From: Candidatus Latescibacterota bacterium
GTDB taxonomy: Bacteria > Latescibacterota > CBDEFO01
Length of the DNA stretch: 64,000 bases
Reading direction: 5' to 3'
NCBI GenBank assembly: GCA_965248755.1
Contig: OZ252149.1
Location: forward strand, 3,136,001 to 3,200,000
Shown one piece after another: positions 22,201-31,200 of the stretch (position 1 is the stretch's first letter; every line of letters starts with the position of its first letter). The position numbers were made by a program.

Positions 22201-25200
22201 CTTTGCAGGAGTGAAACCTCTCTCAGGAAGCGGTGAAGTTGCACATATTATCCTTAAAAGTGATACGATGCAGGAAGATATAATGGGAAGTGTTTCTCTG
22301 GAGATGGTAATTTTGAACGAGGGGCAAATCGGTGTGCTTATTGTTGGTAGTGAGGAGAAACAGACGTCGTATCCAGATACTTACCGATTATTTCAGAATT
22401 TCCCGAATCCTTCCAACCCAGAGACGACAATTCGGTATTATCTGCCCTCCTCCACCCCTCTCACGCTGACGATCTATAATCTGTCCGGACAGTTGATTCG
22501 GACACTGGTAGACGGACAAAGATCAGCCGGTAGCCACTCAGTGATATGGGATAGCACGGACGACACCGGAAATCCTGTGGCGAGCGGAATTTATCTCTAT
22601 CGGGTGGAGGCAGATGGATTTGCGCAGACGAGGAAGCTGATATTGATGCGGTAGGTTTCTAGACCTTTTTGTGAAGCTTACAGGATTGTACAGATAGCCC
22701 GTCAGAGGAGATGACGGGCTATCTTCTTGAACATTTATACCGCTATCGACTATAGGCGCAGTAGGTTTCTGCAACGAATTTCGCTCTCCCGGCAGGACTC
22801 GAACCTGCGACACGGTGGTTAACAGCCACCTGCTCTGCCAACTGAGCTACGGGAGAGTGACAGTTGTATGCAACAGTTTCAGTGCAAAATTGGCCCTTGA
22901 ACAAGCAGGACGTCCAGTTTCTCCCCGAAAAGTTCTTCGATCACTCTTCGGAGGTTACGTATGATGGTGATCGTTCCCTGTGACATAGAGTCGCCCCCGA
23001 TTGTTACTATCGGGGATCTGGGGGTCGAGATTTCTGGGGATCCCTTTGCAAAATGTTCAAGCTTTATTGCCACATGTAAAGATAAAATCTAATCTATCCT
23101 ATTCCAGATGTCAATAGCAAAAGGTGCTGGCCTACCAAATTTTAACAGGGCTGCTGCAACGTGTAGTCAGTCTTGAACTATAGGGCTCTCAAGTTGATTT
23201 TGTCAGCAGAGACTGATTTTACCCAAGCGGTCAGATAGGACAGAGTTCTTCGATATACCACTAGGGATATTTTTAGCTTGACTCCTGTATCTTTGTATGT
23301 TTATCTTTTGTTAATAATCGATCATATAAAACCTTAATTCTCCAACAAGGAGCAAGGGTCTCTGCAATGAAAAATAAGATATTAGTCGTACCACCTTTCC
23401 TGGATCACAGTGTATTTGAAGAAGATGAAGACACAGGTGTGGACATATTGAAAAGGGAATTGCCCTTCGAGCCGGTTATTGAAGCGTACGAAGTAGGGAC
23501 GCTCTCCGCAGATCGTGCTGAAGGGGTTGCAGCCGTAATAGCGGATGGGTCTAAAGTCGATGAAGAGTTCTTCAAAGCGGCCAAGGGCATTATCTACGCC
23601 AGGTGGGGAACAGGTACAGACGGCTACACCAAGGAGATGGTCCTCAGGAATAATATATTGGCTACCAAAGTGCTGGGCGCAAGCGCAGATGCCGTTGCCG
23701 AGTACTCTATCTGGGCCATTCTGGACCTTTTAAAGGAAGCGACGTACAACAACAATCTGGCTCATCAGGGACAAGCAAGGAGGGTAGTAGCAAGACAGAT
23801 CAAAGGCAAGACGGTGGGTATTTACGGATTCGGCCTGATAGGCCAGGGCGTAGCAAGAAAACTCAAGGGATTGGAAGTCCATATTCTGGCATACGATATG
23901 GTAGATAAAAGCCAGATAGCAGATGAGATAGACGTGGAGTTAGTCGCAGCCCCTGAAGAGCTCTTAGCTAGATCGGACATCGTCTCTTTGCATGTCTCTG
24001 CCTCGGACACGATCATTGACAAGGCCGCCATAGAAAAAATGAAGGATGGGGCAATATTGGTGAACCCTTCCAGAGACTTTCTGATAGACGAGACGGCTGT
24101 GTACGAAGCGTTAGAATGCGGGAAACTTTCGGGAGTCTATCAGGAAGAACTTCCCCAAGAAGAGCGGCTGCGCGGACATCCACATGCCCTCTTCAGCCAT
24201 CACAACGCAGGAATATCTGTCGAAGCCTGCAGGGCTTTGACTACTACGACCGCTCACCAACTAGCCGACTTCCTCAACGGGTACCAACCTGAGCATATAG
24301 TCTATCGGGAAGTGCTGAAAAATATGAATCTCAAACCTAAAAGAAGATAAAATCCTCACTACGACCTTCCCACTGCTTTTCTCGGCTTTTTTGTCAACTC
24401 CGCTCACCGGTTTCTCTGTGTTCTGGCTCCCCATACGCAAGTAGACAGTAAACAGGGACATAGCTTCCCATCCCTGTGTGCTGTCTACTATGTTTTGGTC
24501 GCCATATGAACTTTTGAATTCCCCGCGGTGTCTTATGTAGTGAAAGCCTTTTCCCACAAAAAAGTTCTTCCCCGATTGAATCCCCAATAGCATCAATTGG
24601 GGATCGGAGATAGACGAAGATAAAAGGGCTTTGATGACACAATCCGATCGAGACCTCATTGGGAAGATTCGGGATCGCGATGCCAACGCCTTCGAGACGC
24701 TATTTGTGCGCTACAGGGAGATGGTCCGCCGACACTTGGCGAGCATAGTGCACGACGAGGATGGGGCCGACGACCTGGTGCAGGAGGTCTTTCTGCGGGT
24801 ATGGACTCGCGCAGAGCAGTGGAACGGCCGGGGGGCATTTAAGGCGTGGCTCTTCCGCATCGCTACAAACCTTGCACTTAACCACCTGCGCAGTCTGCGT
24901 AGGAGAAGACAGCAATCTCTCGACATCTCAGCGGATCCAGCCGACGACGACGACGAAAGTCCTGTCCCCGGATGGATGATCGACGCCTCGTCACTCGGAC
25001 CTGATGCGGTGCTTGAACAGGCCGAACAGCACGACCTACTCCAGGGTCTTATCGATAGGTTGCCCGAAGAAAAGCGCGAGGTTTTCCGGATGGTGCACGA
25101 GGTGGAGGTGGACATTCGGGATGTCGCCCACGCACTTGATATCCCAGAGGGCACCGTAAAATCGCGCCTGCACTACGCCAGGAAACATCTCGCTCGAAAA

Positions 25201-28200: not shown

Positions 28201-31200
28201 AGGCAAGACAGCCGAAAGGCTTCAACTTCCTTGCGCGCGCAATGCGGGCAAAGCGCCCCGGCATCGTCTTCGCTCGCGCCGCGGCAACGGGCGAGATCGA
28301 TCCACTTACGGACGTCGACAGTCGCCTGTTCGTCGGACTACCCGCAAAATTAGTAGACAGCAAACAGTAGACAGCACACAGGGCTTCCCCCTGCCCATCT
28401 CCCTTGAAAGGCGAGATTGCTTCGCTATCGCTCGCAATGACACAGAGAGTGTTGGCAATGATGTTGCTTGTCCTTTTGTCATTGCACAGTGCCAAAAGTC
28501 CGAAGCAATCTCAAAAACACTTTCTATGGTCATTGCGAGGCAGCGTGGCCGCTCTGCTGGGATGGCTGAAAGCCACGGAGGTTGTGGTAAACTGTTAGTT
28601 GAGTGTGGCAGGCAAAAGAGGTTATTTCTACCGTTAGGCGTAAGATCAGAACATAAAAGGAGGAAACATTGAACCAAGTTCTTGATGACACCAAGAAAAC
28701 GTTTCGCAGTCTGCTCGACGAAAGCACTGATCATCAATGCATTATCGACTTGCTCGTATCTCTTCGGGAAAAGGTCGATTTGTCGGTGGACGATACTGGG
28801 TGGGCCTTGTGGAATATTTGCGACCAATACGCACTAATGCGGGATGCAAAGAACCAGTACACTTATCAGTCCGAGTTTCACGAGTGGGCCAAAGCCAATC
28901 TTCCCCCTTCGAGGTTTCACTGGGTTGTCTCGGACGGGACGCAGGCACTCAGTCTGATTGATGGCGGCTATCTCGACTTCTGGTGGCGATGTTACAACCT
29001 CGCCAACGAGCAATGCCCACGAGATGCTAAGAACCGCGGCGCCCGATTCGAATCGCATAGAGCCAATGCAGCTTCATATACTCACTTTCGGGAATTCAGT
29101 CGTGCTGAAACCGCCCTGAATGCAATAGAGGAACTCCTTGCGGAGGATCAGTCCTGGAGCAACCGCGAATTCGCTGCAGCAACATACTCAACTCTCCTGG
29201 TTGACTTTTACAATGTTTCGGAGCAAAGAGACAAACTCGCACAAACAGAGGGAACCCTTGAAAAGGAGCTTGATGATTGGCTTGGCCGAGCAGGCGATGT
29301 AGAAGACGCACCGGAGGGCCCTTTGCTAGGGAGTTGGGACCAACTGAATGCAGATAGGCCACCGGCGGCGATTTTCATTGCAATCAACAACACCGCGTGT
29401 GCTTTCACCAGAGCGAAGCAATTCCCGGATGCAGAACGGTTGTTCCGCATTTTGCTGGAAAGAAACAGGATTCTAAATGCCTATGGCCAAGCGCAATATC
29501 TACAATCATGTTGGGGGAACAGGCGCAACAAGGATGAAATTGTTGATTGGCTGGACGGCTCCAAGCAACTAAACCCACAAAATCTGAAAAGATTCGCACC
29601 ATCGCTCATAGATGTCGTCAAAGATGAACGTCCGGATTTCGCCTAACAATGCGCTCCCCCTGACTGGCAATTCTCTGGTGCTCATTGCCAGCACCTACAC
29701 AAAGTGTACCAAAAAGGGAAACAAAACTTACCGAAACGGTACACAAAGTGTACCAAAATGGTACACTCATCTCCCGTAACTCGTTGTCTTGCAATGTGGT
29801 GCAAAGTCCGAAGCAATCTCAAAAACACTTTCTACGGTAATTGCGAGGCGGTGTGGCCGCTTTGCTGAGATGGCTGGAAGCCACGAAGTGGGCGTAGTAA
29901 TCTGACGGGATGGGGTGGTGCCCCTGTCTACCTGATCCTGACGCTGTCGGGGTGGTGCTTGAGTGCTACTATGCAGATGGGTCCGAGCATAGCACCGAGA
30001 GCGGCCGAGATCCACGCCCAACTCCATCCGTACAAGTCCAGGACGTATCCGAATACCCAGGGTGCAGCTATAGAAGCGCCGAAGCCGAAGAAAGCCTGCA
30101 AACCTAACGCTCCTCCTATGTACTCTTTTGGGACTAACTCGGTCAGTGATACCTTGTAAATAGCTGAATCCGCGATTATCGAAAATCCATAAACCATCCC
30201 TACGATACCAAGTACCAAAAGGGGTTGTCCTATAAGGAATCCGTACGACAGCGAACAGATTATGCTCACCAGGAGAGAGTAGAGCATTACCCTGATTCTT
30301 CCGAATCTGTCCGACAGACCCCCTCCGAAAATCGTGGAAAAAACCCCTATACTTATACAGATCCCGCTTAGCACACCTCCGAGTTTGAGCGCCTCTTCAG
30401 TCTCCATCCCCAGAGCTTTCCCGCAGGCGGTCAGATAGGGACCTATCCAGCCGTACATCACAAATAGCTCCCAGTTGTGCCCCATATAGCCGCCAGTCAC
30501 AAGCGCCCAGGGCCTATAGCGAAGGACGTGCACGAATAGGCCTTTCAGATCGTCGAAGGGTCGGATCTCTGCTTCAATTACTGCATCATCTGCTCCCGGA
30601 GGAGCATCTCTGACAAAGAGATAGGCTATAAATGCTCCCGCAAAAGCTGTAGCCGAAGTCAGGGCAAATGCGAGCCTCCAAGAATATACAACAGATAGGG
30701 GAGACGTAATAAGGTAAGCCCCTGAAATTGATGCAACAAGCGATGCTGTGTATATCCCTAAGACTTTCCCTCTTTCTCTGGCGGGGAACCAGCCAGAAAG
30801 TATCTTCATCCCCGGAACGTACAGACCGCCCTGTCCTACGCCTGTCAGGAATCTCAAAAGTAAAGCCGACTCATAACTGTCGGCTAAAGAGGCAAAACCT
30901 AATCCGCAGATTCCGGCTTCAAGAGAAGATAGTACAAAGATCTTTCGCCCTCCTATCCTATCCGAAAGCCAGCCGGTAAAGATGACCGACAAGGCGTAGC
31001 CGCCCCAGAAGATAGCGATAACCGCCCCGTTCATTCTGTCGGAGAGCTGCCACTCCTGGGTCAGTACGGGCATGACCGCGGAGTAGCTATTCATCCCCAA
31101 CATCGAAAGGGACTGCGCTACGGACAGAAGAATCAGTATCTTCGACTTTTCCTGCAATTACCCCAACACCTCAAGCACGGCGTCTTTTACCTGTTCCTCG

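Follow-up and report, generated by a model that had tools for sequence, protein, structure and literature searches.

In the present study, we found that a sigma factor gene, a polymerase gene and their private promoter form what looks like a second, undescribed transcription enzyme beside the normal RNA polymerase (RNAP) of Candidatus Latescibacterota bacterium. A literature search, whose coverage was incomplete for one likely source, returned no description of the mini-polymerase family. The locus lies in a window of 64,000 nt (GCA_965248755.1, contig OZ252149.1, 3,136,001-3,200,000, forward strand), and all coordinates are window positions (Table 1). Both open reading frames were recovered where the genome-wide survey's note had placed them. 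The junction reads ATG-TAA-TG, in which the sigma stop codon (TAA, 25234-25236) and the polymerase start codon (ATG, 25236) share one base, as the overlap claimed there requires. The N-termini of homologues aligned at this ATG. The host genome carries one copy of the mini-polymerase gene, together with a normal rpoB (open frame of 1317 aa) and rpoC (1387 aa).

Table 1. Features of the sigma-polymerase operon (window positions).
Feature	Position	Strand	Basis
Private ECF-type promoter, 37 nt	24507..24543	+	Read from sequence; motif recurs across loci
Long 5' leader, predicted fold; one arm pairs with the sigma gene ribosome-binding site AAAAGGG	24541..24633	+	RNA folding
ECF-type sigma factor gene, 200 aa, regions 2 and 4 only	24634..25236	+	ORF, Pfam, TIGR02937
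Ribosome-binding site GGGAGGA of the polymerase gene, within the 3' end of the sigma gene	25223..25229	+	Read from sequence
Single-chain mini RNA polymerase gene, 1044 aa	25236..28370	+	ORF, Pfam, AlphaFold2, Foldseek, VIA-align
Beta-like half, residues 1-530: conserved beta core without lobe, flap, fork loop 2	25236..26825	+	VIA-align, hhalign
Beta active-site loop SNRHGTKG, residues 323-330	26202..26225	+	Alignment
Beta' clamp helices (coiled coil), residues 567-614	26934..27077	+	hhalign to E. coli beta' 264-311
Beta' catalytic motif NADFDGD, residues 743-749	27462..27482	+	Alignment
Bridge helix, residues 958-991	28107..28208	+	Single 34-residue helix in model
Conserved C-terminal tail RPGIVFARAAAxGExDPLTDxDSRLFVGL	28254..28340	+	Nearly invariant columns 1001-1035

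The Pfam scan recovered on one chain all three domains claimed for it, namely Rpb2_3 (160-212), Rpb2_6 (315-447, E 4.9e-37), and Rpb1_2 (625-767, E 3.1e-16). No NCBIfam polymerase model reached its cut-off, as the note had said; the top score was 185 bits against 4632. A new AlphaFold2 model built from 69 sequences was very confident (pLDDT 93.4, pTM 0.91; 87.8 and 0.83 in the note). In Foldseek, it matched best the beta and beta' chains of RNAP from bacteria and plastids (E 2.5e-23). The superposition on the whole of C. thermocellum beta was also repeated, with residues 2-534 placed by VIA-align on 8i23_C 23-1165 (523 aligned, Z 30.0, rmsd 2.6, 31% identity). Pfam, AlphaFold2, and VIA-align agreed on the proposed fused, pared-down beta-beta' chain, and the claimed likeness to the host's own rpoB and rpoC products was recovered at residues 316-513 and 622-770.

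The profile alignments indicated which parts were lost. By hhalign, residues 85-530 matched E. coli beta 441-1342 in nine blocks, giving partners to 435 of 1342 beta residues, and the parts lacking a counterpart in this profile map were 1-440, most of 581-652, 700-782, 824-1055 (the flap), 1123-1176, and fork loop 2. In the structure, however, the first 84 residues still superposed on the start of beta. Over both subunits, the lobe, flap, fork loop 2, zinc finger/lid region, trigger loop, and jaw were absent in the profile alignments. Beta' had been said to start at about residue 265; it may begin earlier, since VIA-align paired query residue ~540, the first of the beta' half to be aligned, with E. 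coli beta' ~101, a pairing of ranges only at an rmsd of 13-14 A. The hhalign match of the bridge helix extended to E. coli beta' 792, and no trigger loop was found between this helix and the C-terminal tail. The claimed lack of any counterpart beyond the bridge helix is less certain, given a weak, non-significant hhalign match of tail residues 1011-1034 to beta' 1331-1354 (E 0.33). The tail reached pLDDT >90 in the full-length model only.

The RHGxKG and NADFDGD motifs were retained as claimed, and all catalytic residues checked were kept. In the SNRHGTKG loop, R325 and G327 were invariant, and H326 and K329 were found in 67 and 65 of the 69 cluster representatives, respectively. According to the alignment, K321, K329, R362, and H439 correspond to E. 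coli beta K1065, K1073, R1106, and H1237. NADFDGD was invariant in 42 locus-derived sequences, and its three Asp residues were kept in 66 of 69 cluster representatives, the triad being missing in three. Among the 42 sequences, the counterparts of E. coli beta E813, D814, K1065, K1073, R1106, and H1237 and of beta' R425, N458, D460, D462, and D464 were invariant or nearly so. In normal RNAP, the beta' clamp helices are the docking site of sigma region 2 and are dispensable for catalysis. The corresponding region of the model forms helices 570-587 and 592-613, in which N579, R/K581, R584, and P591 were conserved; at three positions that contact sigma70 in E. coli (R275, E295, and A302), the residue was changed.

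The dedicated sigma upstream was also reproduced: it is of ECF type by its matches to Sigma70_r2 (E 2.2e-19), Sigma70_r4_2, and Sigma70_ECF in Pfam, and it scored 110 bits against the TIGR02937 cut-off of 42.9. In 50 of the 51 testable loci, those where upstream DNA exists, a sigma orthologue (46-96% identical) immediately precedes the polymerase gene. The promoter elements claimed, TGAAC (24507-24511), 15 bases, and GGTGTC (24527-24532), were present; the true extent proved to be 37 nt, with a 14-nt spacer before CGGTGTC (24526-24532) and, beyond the -10 element, a further conserved block that ends in AGTGA (24539-24543). Of 50 loci, 48 had the motif ahead of the sigma gene (45 at the same spacing, three with the spacer one base shorter), and the -35 TGAAC and its spacing were conserved to the same degree as the -10 element. 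When the 4.54-Mb genome was scanned with a weight matrix, the operon's own site scored 39.6 bits, the runner-up 18.8, and shuffles at most 17.4, in agreement with the claimed uniqueness of the full promoter in the host. Of 15 other genomes scanned, eight likewise had no further full copy. In four Poribacteria genomes, the sole additional copy preceded a gene for an ABC-2 type membrane permease, and this second target of one clade also carried the block downstream of the -10 element. The motif lay 126 nt ahead of the start codon here vs only 42-59 nt in most other loci. The long leader was found only in the host's genus and is predicted to fold at -28.6 kcal/mol (z -3.06), with equally good folding in 0 of 200 shuffles.

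The database search repeated the earlier counts, with 7,995 proteins (canonical subunits included), of which the best 120 were 990-1106 aa long and 54-91% identical. The pair was found on the same strand in six phyla (Poribacteria, Latescibacterota, Planctomycetota, Hydrogenedentota, Armatimonadota, and Chloroflexota), and stop and start overlapped or abutted in many loci. This recurrence of pair and promoter across phyla is far beyond chance. Over 861 pairs, the pairwise distances of sigma and polymerase were correlated (r 0.93), and the two had diverged equally on average (0.44 and 0.45). Purifying selection acts on both genes, with dN/dS of 0.17 for sigma (vs a same-genus relative) and 0.23 for the polymerase. 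Among the neighbours of the loci, no further family was common to more than one clade, and neither anti-sigma nor mobile-element genes were conserved. The promoter stays with the polymerase gene: in loci whose pair has come apart, a separate copy of the motif precedes the polymerase. In one such locus (L022), an inserted ORF separates the pair and a second site lies behind that ORF, 127 nt before the polymerase gene; in another (L028), an orphan polymerase copy has a site just upstream, with an intact pair on another contig of the same genome.

We tentatively propose, at somewhat under an even chance, a two-gene module in which the sigma switches on its own operon and also serves a catalytically competent mini polymerase as initiation factor. 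The ECF-type sigma would recognise the 37-nt promoter ahead of its own gene, whereby sigma and the co-translated polymerase would be switched on; in the first round of expression, it would necessarily act on the normal core. The mini polymerase would be a two-barrel RNAP cut to the conserved beta and beta' core, with the fusion replacing alpha2 and omega in holding it together. The same sigma would most likely be its initiation factor, with region 2 docking on the clamp helices in a holoenzyme of ~140 kDa. In the normal holoenzyme, the flap tip helix of beta holds sigma region 4. Since the flap is gone, region 4 could not sit as it does there, and the mini holoenzyme may thus read promoters differently, for example mainly via the -10 element. 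Its role would be that of an accessory, inducible polymerase. The gene coupling, joint evolution, promoter that follows the polymerase gene, shared downstream block, and selection suggested such a module, and the kept catalytic residues and clamp helices, as read from the alignments, suggest the same.

Several observations argue against the two-gene module. The flap is unaligned, yet the -35 element and its spacing are conserved, which fits reading by the normal core, and three sigma70-contact positions are changed. As the full promoter occurs nowhere else in the genome, a holoenzyme of the same specificity would find hardly any template besides its own operon. The members lacking the Asp triad are possibly inactive, and a search for a sigma-polymerase fusion protein, which is weak evidence, found none. 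A somewhat less likely reading is that the sigma is only a switch: on the normal core it would induce the mini polymerase as sole effector, which would be sigma-free like YonO or QDE-1. Its templates would not be promoter-defined but single-stranded, nicked, damaged, or foreign DNA, or RNA, and its products perhaps primers, long hybrids, or antisense RNA. Parts that serve RNA exit and DNA handling in promoter-dependent initiation are missing from the mini enzyme, namely the flap, the lid/zinc-finger region, the lobe, fork loop 2, and the trigger loop; the classical ECF layout with fixed -35/-10 spacing fits a flap-bearing core. A regulon of little more than the operon is expected where the polymerase is the output, and YonO, likewise without a recognisable trigger loop, is described in excerpts of its report as efficient and processive (PMC5467207). 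However, a sigma acting only as a switch leaves unexplained the surface-conserved clamp helices, for which an elongation factor could be another reason, and the translational coupling, by which sigma and polymerase are probably made in equal amounts; moreover, no template or partner gene is conserved nearby.

It is improbable that the protein is a decoy or sensor instead of a working polymerase. Such a core look-alike would hold the sigma by its clamp helices or soak up RNAP-targeting compounds or phage proteins, and on such a signal would release the sigma, whereby further decoy and, in certain lineages, an exporter would be induced. The missing anti-sigma gene, the permease as only other promoter target in four Poribacteria genomes, the loss of the triad in three members, and the partial retention of the rifampicin pocket region, switch 2, and bridge helix, which are inhibitor pockets in normal RNAP, agree with such a decoy. 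However, the retention of the Asp triad in 66 of 69 members and of the residues of the beta active site in 65-69 of 69 points to catalysis, rifampicin-pocket positions are poorly conserved (S531 equivalent R, V, or L; D516 equivalent S, D, or Q), and PADLOC gave no match for the polymerase. It is very improbable that the gene was left by a mobile element, for example as a phage or plasmid polymerase, and is now decaying or selfish and of no use to the cell. The operon's G+C content (0.587, 99th percentile vs a genome mean of 0.489), the patchy occurrence within the phylum (65 of 168 genomes), and copies that are broken (L021, L017) or beside an inserted ORF would suit it. Against a remnant stand the purifying selection on both genes, a family tree close to the phylum labels (five changes, minimum four), the lack of conserved mobile-element genes alongside, and the absence of family members from 50,697 phage and 72,556 plasmid records.

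Compared with canonical bacterial RNAP and ECF sigma factors, the locus shares the two double-psi barrels, catalytic residues, switch 2, clamp helices, and bridge helix, and a normal two-domain sigma with a GAAC-type -35 element. In structure alignments, the mini polymerase was ~30% identical to bacterial beta, 25-26% to archaeal, and 20-21% to Pol II chains. It differs as one 1044-aa chain vs 2704 aa in the host's beta and beta' open frames, in the missing parts listed above, and in scoring below the NCBIfam rpoB/rpoC cut-offs; no anti-sigma gene lies next to its sigma, whose regulon is essentially limited to the operon. Full-length beta::beta' fusions (PRK14844, PRK09603) likewise carry beta then beta' in one frame but are full-size, with profiles of 2839-2890 positions, against which the mini polymerase scored 185 and 168 bits (cut-offs 4632 and 5372). 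By the description in excerpts of one paper, pGKL2 Orf6 of yeast cytoplasmic killer plasmids is a 982-aa Rpb2::Rpb1 fusion with about half of each deleted, thus of the same subunit order and ~1000 aa (PMC2919709). Orf6 derives from eukaryotes, is encoded by linear plasmids of the cytoplasm, and works without a sigma partner, whereas the mini polymerase is bacterial by sequence and chromosomal. YonO of the Bacillus prophage SPbeta is similarly a single-chain two-barrel polymerase, reported to show homology to the two large subunits within one polypeptide and to have no recognisable trigger loop (PMC5467207). The family profile aligned with YonO over only 25 columns around DxDGD (E 0.33), whereas the Pfam beta/beta' domains matched at E 1e-16 to 1e-37; YonO is prophage-borne without an adjacent sigma, and the mini-polymerase family was not found in the phage collection. 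The RNAPs of phiKZ- and AR9-type jumbo phages are also reduced two-barrel enzymes without alpha and omega, and PHROG profiles annotated as RNAP beta subunit matched the mini polymerase weakly (phrog_3295, E 2.8e-21). In these phages, beta and beta' are split over several polypeptides, according to excerpts of the sources (PMC7598289, PMC4666361), whereas the mini polymerase is fused, cellular, and sigma-linked.

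Sequence reading showed that the last base of the TAA stop codon of the sigma gene is the first base of the ATG codon of the mini polymerase gene, and the motif GGGAGGA lies 6 nt upstream of this ATG. The mini polymerase gene is present in one copy in the 4.54-Mb genome, which also carries normal rpoB and rpoC genes (open frames of 1317 and 1387 aa) at a distance of 2.6 Mb. The neighbors of the pair in the window are metabolic genes, and a terminator scan found no convincing terminator 3' of the polymerase gene.

Coordinates of the sigma-mini polymerase pair and of other features considered (window positions unless marked otherwise)
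Feature	Position	Strand	Remark
1280-aa protein	18812-22654		four cohesin stretches, dockerin, several Ig-like domains, type IX secretion sorting tail
Private promoter	24507-24543		37-nt motif upstream of the sigma gene
Leader	24541-24633		promoter to sigma start
Operon	24634-28370		G+C 0.587, GC3 0.65
ECF-type sigma	24634-25236	+	ORF of 200 codons
Mini polymerase	25236-28370	+	ORF of 1044 codons
Bridge helix	residues 958-991 of the mini polymerase		model helix; hhalign reaches E. coli beta' 792
325-aa ORF	28669-29646		downstream of the polymerase gene; family match is weak TPR only
beta'-like frame	contig 569571-569834 (outside the window)		90 codons with one TAG

The G+C content of the operon lies at the 99th percentile of equal-sized windows (genome mean 0.489, sd 0.033), and that of the rpoBC region is 0.479. 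The 325-aa ORF stands beside the pair in no other locus, the same-genus relative included, and the 1280-aa protein is unrelated to the pair. The leader measures about 90 nt in this genome and in the same-genus relative, compared with about 20 nt in the majority of the other loci. It forms a stable predicted fold (-28.6 kcal/mol, z -3.06), one arm of which pairs with the AAAAGGG ribosome-binding site, and it may be a translational control element. The short frame elsewhere on the contig resembles polymerase residues 658-742 (40% identity, E 5.6e-6); lying 30 kb from rpoBC, it may be what is left of a beta'-like gene.

The Pfam search identified Rpb2_3 (residues 160-212), Rpb2_6 (315-447, E 4.9e-37) and then Rpb1_2 (625-767, E 3.1e-16) on the mini polymerase. 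None of the curated rpoB, rpoC and rpoBC-fusion models came near its cut-off on this protein; TIGR02013 scored 170.6 against a cut-off of 801, and TIGR02386 scored 124.8 against 963.5. The AlphaFold2 model, which was based on an alignment of 69 cluster representatives, reached a pLDDT of 93.4 and a pTM of 0.91, and its top Foldseek matches were bacterial and plastid beta and beta' chains (E 2.5e-23). In VIA-align, residues 2-534 superposed on residues 23-1165 of C. thermocellum beta (523 aligned, Z 30.0, rmsd 2.6, 31% identity), followed by archaeal B and Pol II Rpb2 chains (Z 28-29, 20-26% identity). By structure alignment, the identity of the beta half was 28-31% with bacterial beta versus 20-22% with Pol II Rpb2. 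The beta half thus represents the universal second-largest-subunit core and is of bacterial descent. A separate model of residues 540-1044 (pLDDT 84.1) paired at its start with about residue 101 of E. coli beta' and at its end with residues near 788-796, at an rmsd of 13-14 A; the VIA-align output for this model consists of ranges only, and the beta'-half ranges stop at about model residue 452.

Profile and structural comparisons indicated which parts of the canonical subunits are retained. The family profile aligned residues 85-530 with E. coli beta 441-1342 in nine blocks, while beta residues 1-440, most of 581-652, 700-782, 824-1055 and 1123-1176 were not aligned by sequence. The flap (beta 824-1055, tip helix included) had no aligned partner except four scattered residues; in the canonical RNA polymerase, the flap tip helix holds sigma region 4. 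Fork loop 2 is deleted, with beta G534 and F545 lacking a partner. In the second half of the chain, residues 567-982 aligned with E. coli beta' 264-792, a span that takes in the clamp helices (570-613), switch 2, the barrel with NADFDGD, the funnel helices and finally the bridge helix. Only 53 residues lie behind the bridge helix, and none of them has an aligned partner in the trigger-loop region of E. coli beta'; thus, the trigger loop is absent. The C-terminal tail (residues 1007-1035) is almost invariant across the family. Its hhalign match to E. coli beta' 1331-1354 was non-significant (E 0.33), and BLASTP against the beta' C-terminus found nothing. The fusion of the two halves probably makes the alpha/omega assembly platform less necessary.

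The alignment placed E297, D298, K321, K329, R362 and H439 of the mini polymerase on E. coli beta E813, D814, K1065, K1073, R1106 and H1237, respectively, and beta' R425, N458, D460, D462 and D464 (E. coli numbering) had identical partners. These positions, which make up the catalytic set in E. coli, were invariant or nearly so in 42 locus-derived sequences, and the NADFDGD motif (N743-D749) was invariant among them. Judged from the alignment, the catalytic set of the mini polymerase is complete among the residues checked. In the wider set, the Asp triad was kept in 66 of the 69 cluster representatives. One or more catalytic Asp residues were lost in the remaining 3 of 69 (P0163, P0165 and P0193, with EVGFSAQ, DQDFDGN and NAGFGGL), and the Asn preceding the triad was replaced by Asp in 18 of 69. 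Some lineages may therefore keep the mini polymerase for a non-catalytic role or with an altered substrate choice.

A word-indexed search returned 7,995 proteins, and the best 120 of them were 990-1106 aa long and 54-91% identical; few of these 120 carried names, which were only 'hypothetical protein' or Pfam domain names. An exhaustive search of 1.84 billion representatives yielded 571 proteins with E values no higher than 1e-30; the top 150 (E up to 2.7e-69) were full-length relatives or fragments. We collected 59 family loci from species-representative genomes, which submitters had labeled as Poribacteria, Latescibacterota, Planctomycetota, Hydrogenedentota, Armatimonadota (Chthonomonadaceae) and Chloroflexota. 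Within Latescibacterota, the gene was found in 65 of 168 genomes (19 of 52 among the high-quality genomes), and its spread across families was very uneven (e.g., 0/13, 25/31 and 32/76). A FastTree phylogeny of the 42 sequences required 5 changes of phylum label, with a minimum of 4, and recovered the Poribacteria clade as the sister group of the window and its same-genus relative; because the branches are long, we drew no donor or order of events from this tree. The gene is chromosomal, in genomes of 4.5-8.4 Mb. The family was found neither in the phage collection (47 matching records) nor in the plasmid collection (69 matching records), as no record covered 80% of the query, and the 15 matches listed for each were canonical or phage rpoB/rpoC-like genes or were unannotated under the match. 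In PADLOC (2023 library), the polymerase had no match and the sigma had one weak match (E 0.004). The protein atlas contained other single-chain clusters with Rpb2_6 and Rpb1_2 (1330 to 1787 aa, some with Rpb1_5 in addition and one named with an inorganic pyrophosphatase domain), and a 1221-aa cluster that lists Rpb2_6 only. Fused two-barrel polymerases of several sizes seem to exist in metagenomes.

The sigma carries Sigma70_r2, Sigma70_r4_2 and Sigma70_ECF domains, corresponding to regions 2 and 4 only, and scored 110.2 with TIGR02937 (cut-off 42.9). After the exclusion of 8 loci in which the polymerase gene was cut by the contig start, 51 of the 59 loci could be compared, and an orthologous sigma (46-96% identical) was located directly upstream on the same strand in 50 of them. 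The sole exception, locus L028, holds an orphan polymerase, and the same genome (G183) carries an intact pair on another contig (L113). Upstream of this orphan are a 143-aa ORF that looks transposase-like by eye and, on the opposite strand, an ORF of 187 aa. Another carrier genome (G003) has two sigma-polymerase pairs, one of them at L100:1738-5759. At the junction of the two genes, overlaps or gaps of a few bases were common, and gaps of 64-263 nt were typical in Poribacteria. Clustering of all neighboring ORFs in the 59 loci revealed no third gene common to loci beyond one clade. An anti-sigma gene beside an ECF sigma gene is common but not universal; no co-encoded anti-sigma was found here, and the polymerase was the sole conserved neighbor across the 59 loci. 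The pairwise distances of sigma and polymerase were correlated (r 0.93, 861 pairs), which is expected for co-inherited genes and is no proof of contact. Compared with a 92%-identical relative, the sigma had a dN/dS of 0.17 and the polymerase had one of 0.23. With the sigma as query against longer proteins, no sigma-polymerase fusion was found at E 1e-20, which is weak evidence. Complex prediction of sigma 1-200 with polymerase 1-800, run without controls, gave scores of 0.22, 0.40 and 0.27, which lie on both sides of the mark of 0.32 and favor neither outcome.

Upstream of the sigma gene, the pattern GAAC-N15-[GT]GTGT was present in 45 of 50 regions and, with a spacing one base shorter, in 3 more, giving 48 of 50; the two regions without the motif were locus L021, where the sigma is broken, and locus L053. 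The consensus of the aligned sites was TGAAC-yTT-N-TGCGGTGTC-aT-N4-AGTG, with high information also in a block 7-11 nt downstream of the -10 element. Transcription is predicted to start about 7 nt past CGGTGTC. This layout is of the ECF type with a GAAC-type -35 element, and the sigma probably reads the private promoter, which would amount to autoregulation. When the weight matrix was applied to the genome itself, the private promoter scored 39.6 bits. The next site (contig 3089961, 18.8 bits) was set aside as close to the best value in shuffled genomes, 17.4 bits. Three 18-bit sites (contig 1612537, 1614424 and 1617790) were rejected as promoters because they fall within paralogous reading frames that run in the opposite direction.

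We also searched 15 other genomes with the exact pattern and scored the matches with the weight matrix in the first five, which separated chance matches. Only the promoter before the sigma was found in 8 of the 15, and the strict pattern had no match in 2, in which the last block of the genome's own site departs from it. The extra match in G003 led to the second sigma-polymerase pair. In the remaining 4, which are related Poribacteria, a second strong site, including the downstream block, was located about 100 nt before a gene whose product is an ABC-2 type membrane permease of 510 aa; the four permeases share 86-87% identity. These permease loci (L099:9131-10764 in G005, L101, L106 and L107) carry the domains ABC2_membrane_2 and DUF3526, and in G005, the one locus read further, a second permease follows the first. 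In the genomes searched, the permease was the only regulon member found outside the pair. Within the fetched loci, extra sites were confined to interrupted pairs. In the L022 region 5288-5874, the two genes are separated by an inserted ORF of 148 aa on the opposite strand, and the polymerase gene is preceded by a second copy of the promoter (41.3 bits, at 5837); in L028, the orphan polymerase has a site immediately in front of it. These observations indicated that the polymerase gene is always kept behind the promoter.

Collectively, the sigma and the mini polymerase form a conserved, selected two-gene unit with a private promoter of ECF layout. That the mini enzyme uses the same sigma as its initiation factor is our tentative preference, and we rate it as falling slightly short of an even chance. 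Three points favor this reading: the clamp helices persist and carry conserved residues on their surface, translation of the two genes is coupled, and sigma and polymerase are almost always paired. The normal core must supply the first transcripts. However, the flap is missing from the mini polymerase, three clamp-helix positions that are sigma contacts in E. coli are changed, and a holoenzyme of the same specificity would have almost no targets. For these three reasons, the specificity would probably be altered if the sigma binds the mini enzyme, e.g., to -10-only recognition. In its fullest form, the pair would be a complete orthogonal transcription machine: the smallest sigma-dependent cellular-type RNA polymerase, with a core of about 115 kDa and a 23-kDa sigma, which dispenses with alpha, omega, the flap, the zinc finger and the trigger loop and initiates at its own extended promoter. 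We regard this version as plausible but somewhat doubtful.

The main alternative, possible if rather doubtful, is that the sigma acts with the normal core only and that the mini enzyme works sigma-free on non-promoter templates, like YonO or QDE-1. The absence of the flap counts on this side, and the intact geometry of the -35 and -10 elements is consistent with a flap-bearing holoenzyme; the kept clamp helices and the nearly absolute pairing speak for a shared sigma instead. The mini polymerase might also be a decoy or sensor, which we consider quite unlikely, or a selfish remnant, which appears very improbable; both are disfavored because the active site is conserved and the gene is under purifying selection.

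A single core enzyme is held to carry out transcription in bacteria. For several poorly studied phyla, this picture would change with an additional chromosomal polymerase of that lineage which is conserved, selected, reduced to about 40% of normal size and always linked to a sigma of its own. The family can be regarded as a natural deletion experiment on RNA polymerase: the flap, lobe, fork loop 2, lid/zinc-finger region, trigger loop and jaw can be lost, as can the need for alpha and omega, while the catalytic residues and clamp helices remain under selection. The pair also raises the question of whether a sigma can work on a flap-less core. If the mini polymerase and its sigma prove to be an autonomous holoenzyme, they would provide a compact, portable orthogonal polymerase-promoter expression system, show the minimal sigma-dependent enzyme and serve as a simple model for studying how the enzyme evolved early on.

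Full-text searches and the ECF reclassification paper (PMC7826278, main text and one supplement) yielded no description of the mini polymerase family; Iyer and Aravind 2012 (PMC3769190), the source likeliest to mention it, lay outside this search. By sequence and predicted structure, the mini polymerase is a bacterial-lineage two-barrel RNA polymerase, and it is a member of neither the YonO family nor the pGKL2 Orf6 family. It has the beta'-type barrel, the beta-type barrel and the bridge helix of the two-barrel core, without the trigger loop. Whereas the canonical RNA polymerase has separate full-length beta and beta' subunits, the mini polymerase is a single 1044-aa chain without a flap. No trigger loop is recognizable in YonO either (PMC5467207). 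In contrast, an hhalign comparison of the 69-sequence profile with SPbeta YonO covered 25 columns, the DxDGD motif only (E 0.33), and YonO belongs to a prophage, whereas the mini polymerase family was not found in the phage collection. Orf6 of the yeast killer plasmid pGKL2 is described in PMC2919709 as a 982-aa Rpb2::Rpb1 fusion from which about half of each gene is deleted. On that description, Orf6 resembles the mini polymerase in joining the cores of the second-largest and largest subunits in one chain of about 1000 aa, but it is of eukaryotic descent and encoded on a linear cytoplasmic plasmid, whereas the mini polymerase is bacterial and chromosomal.
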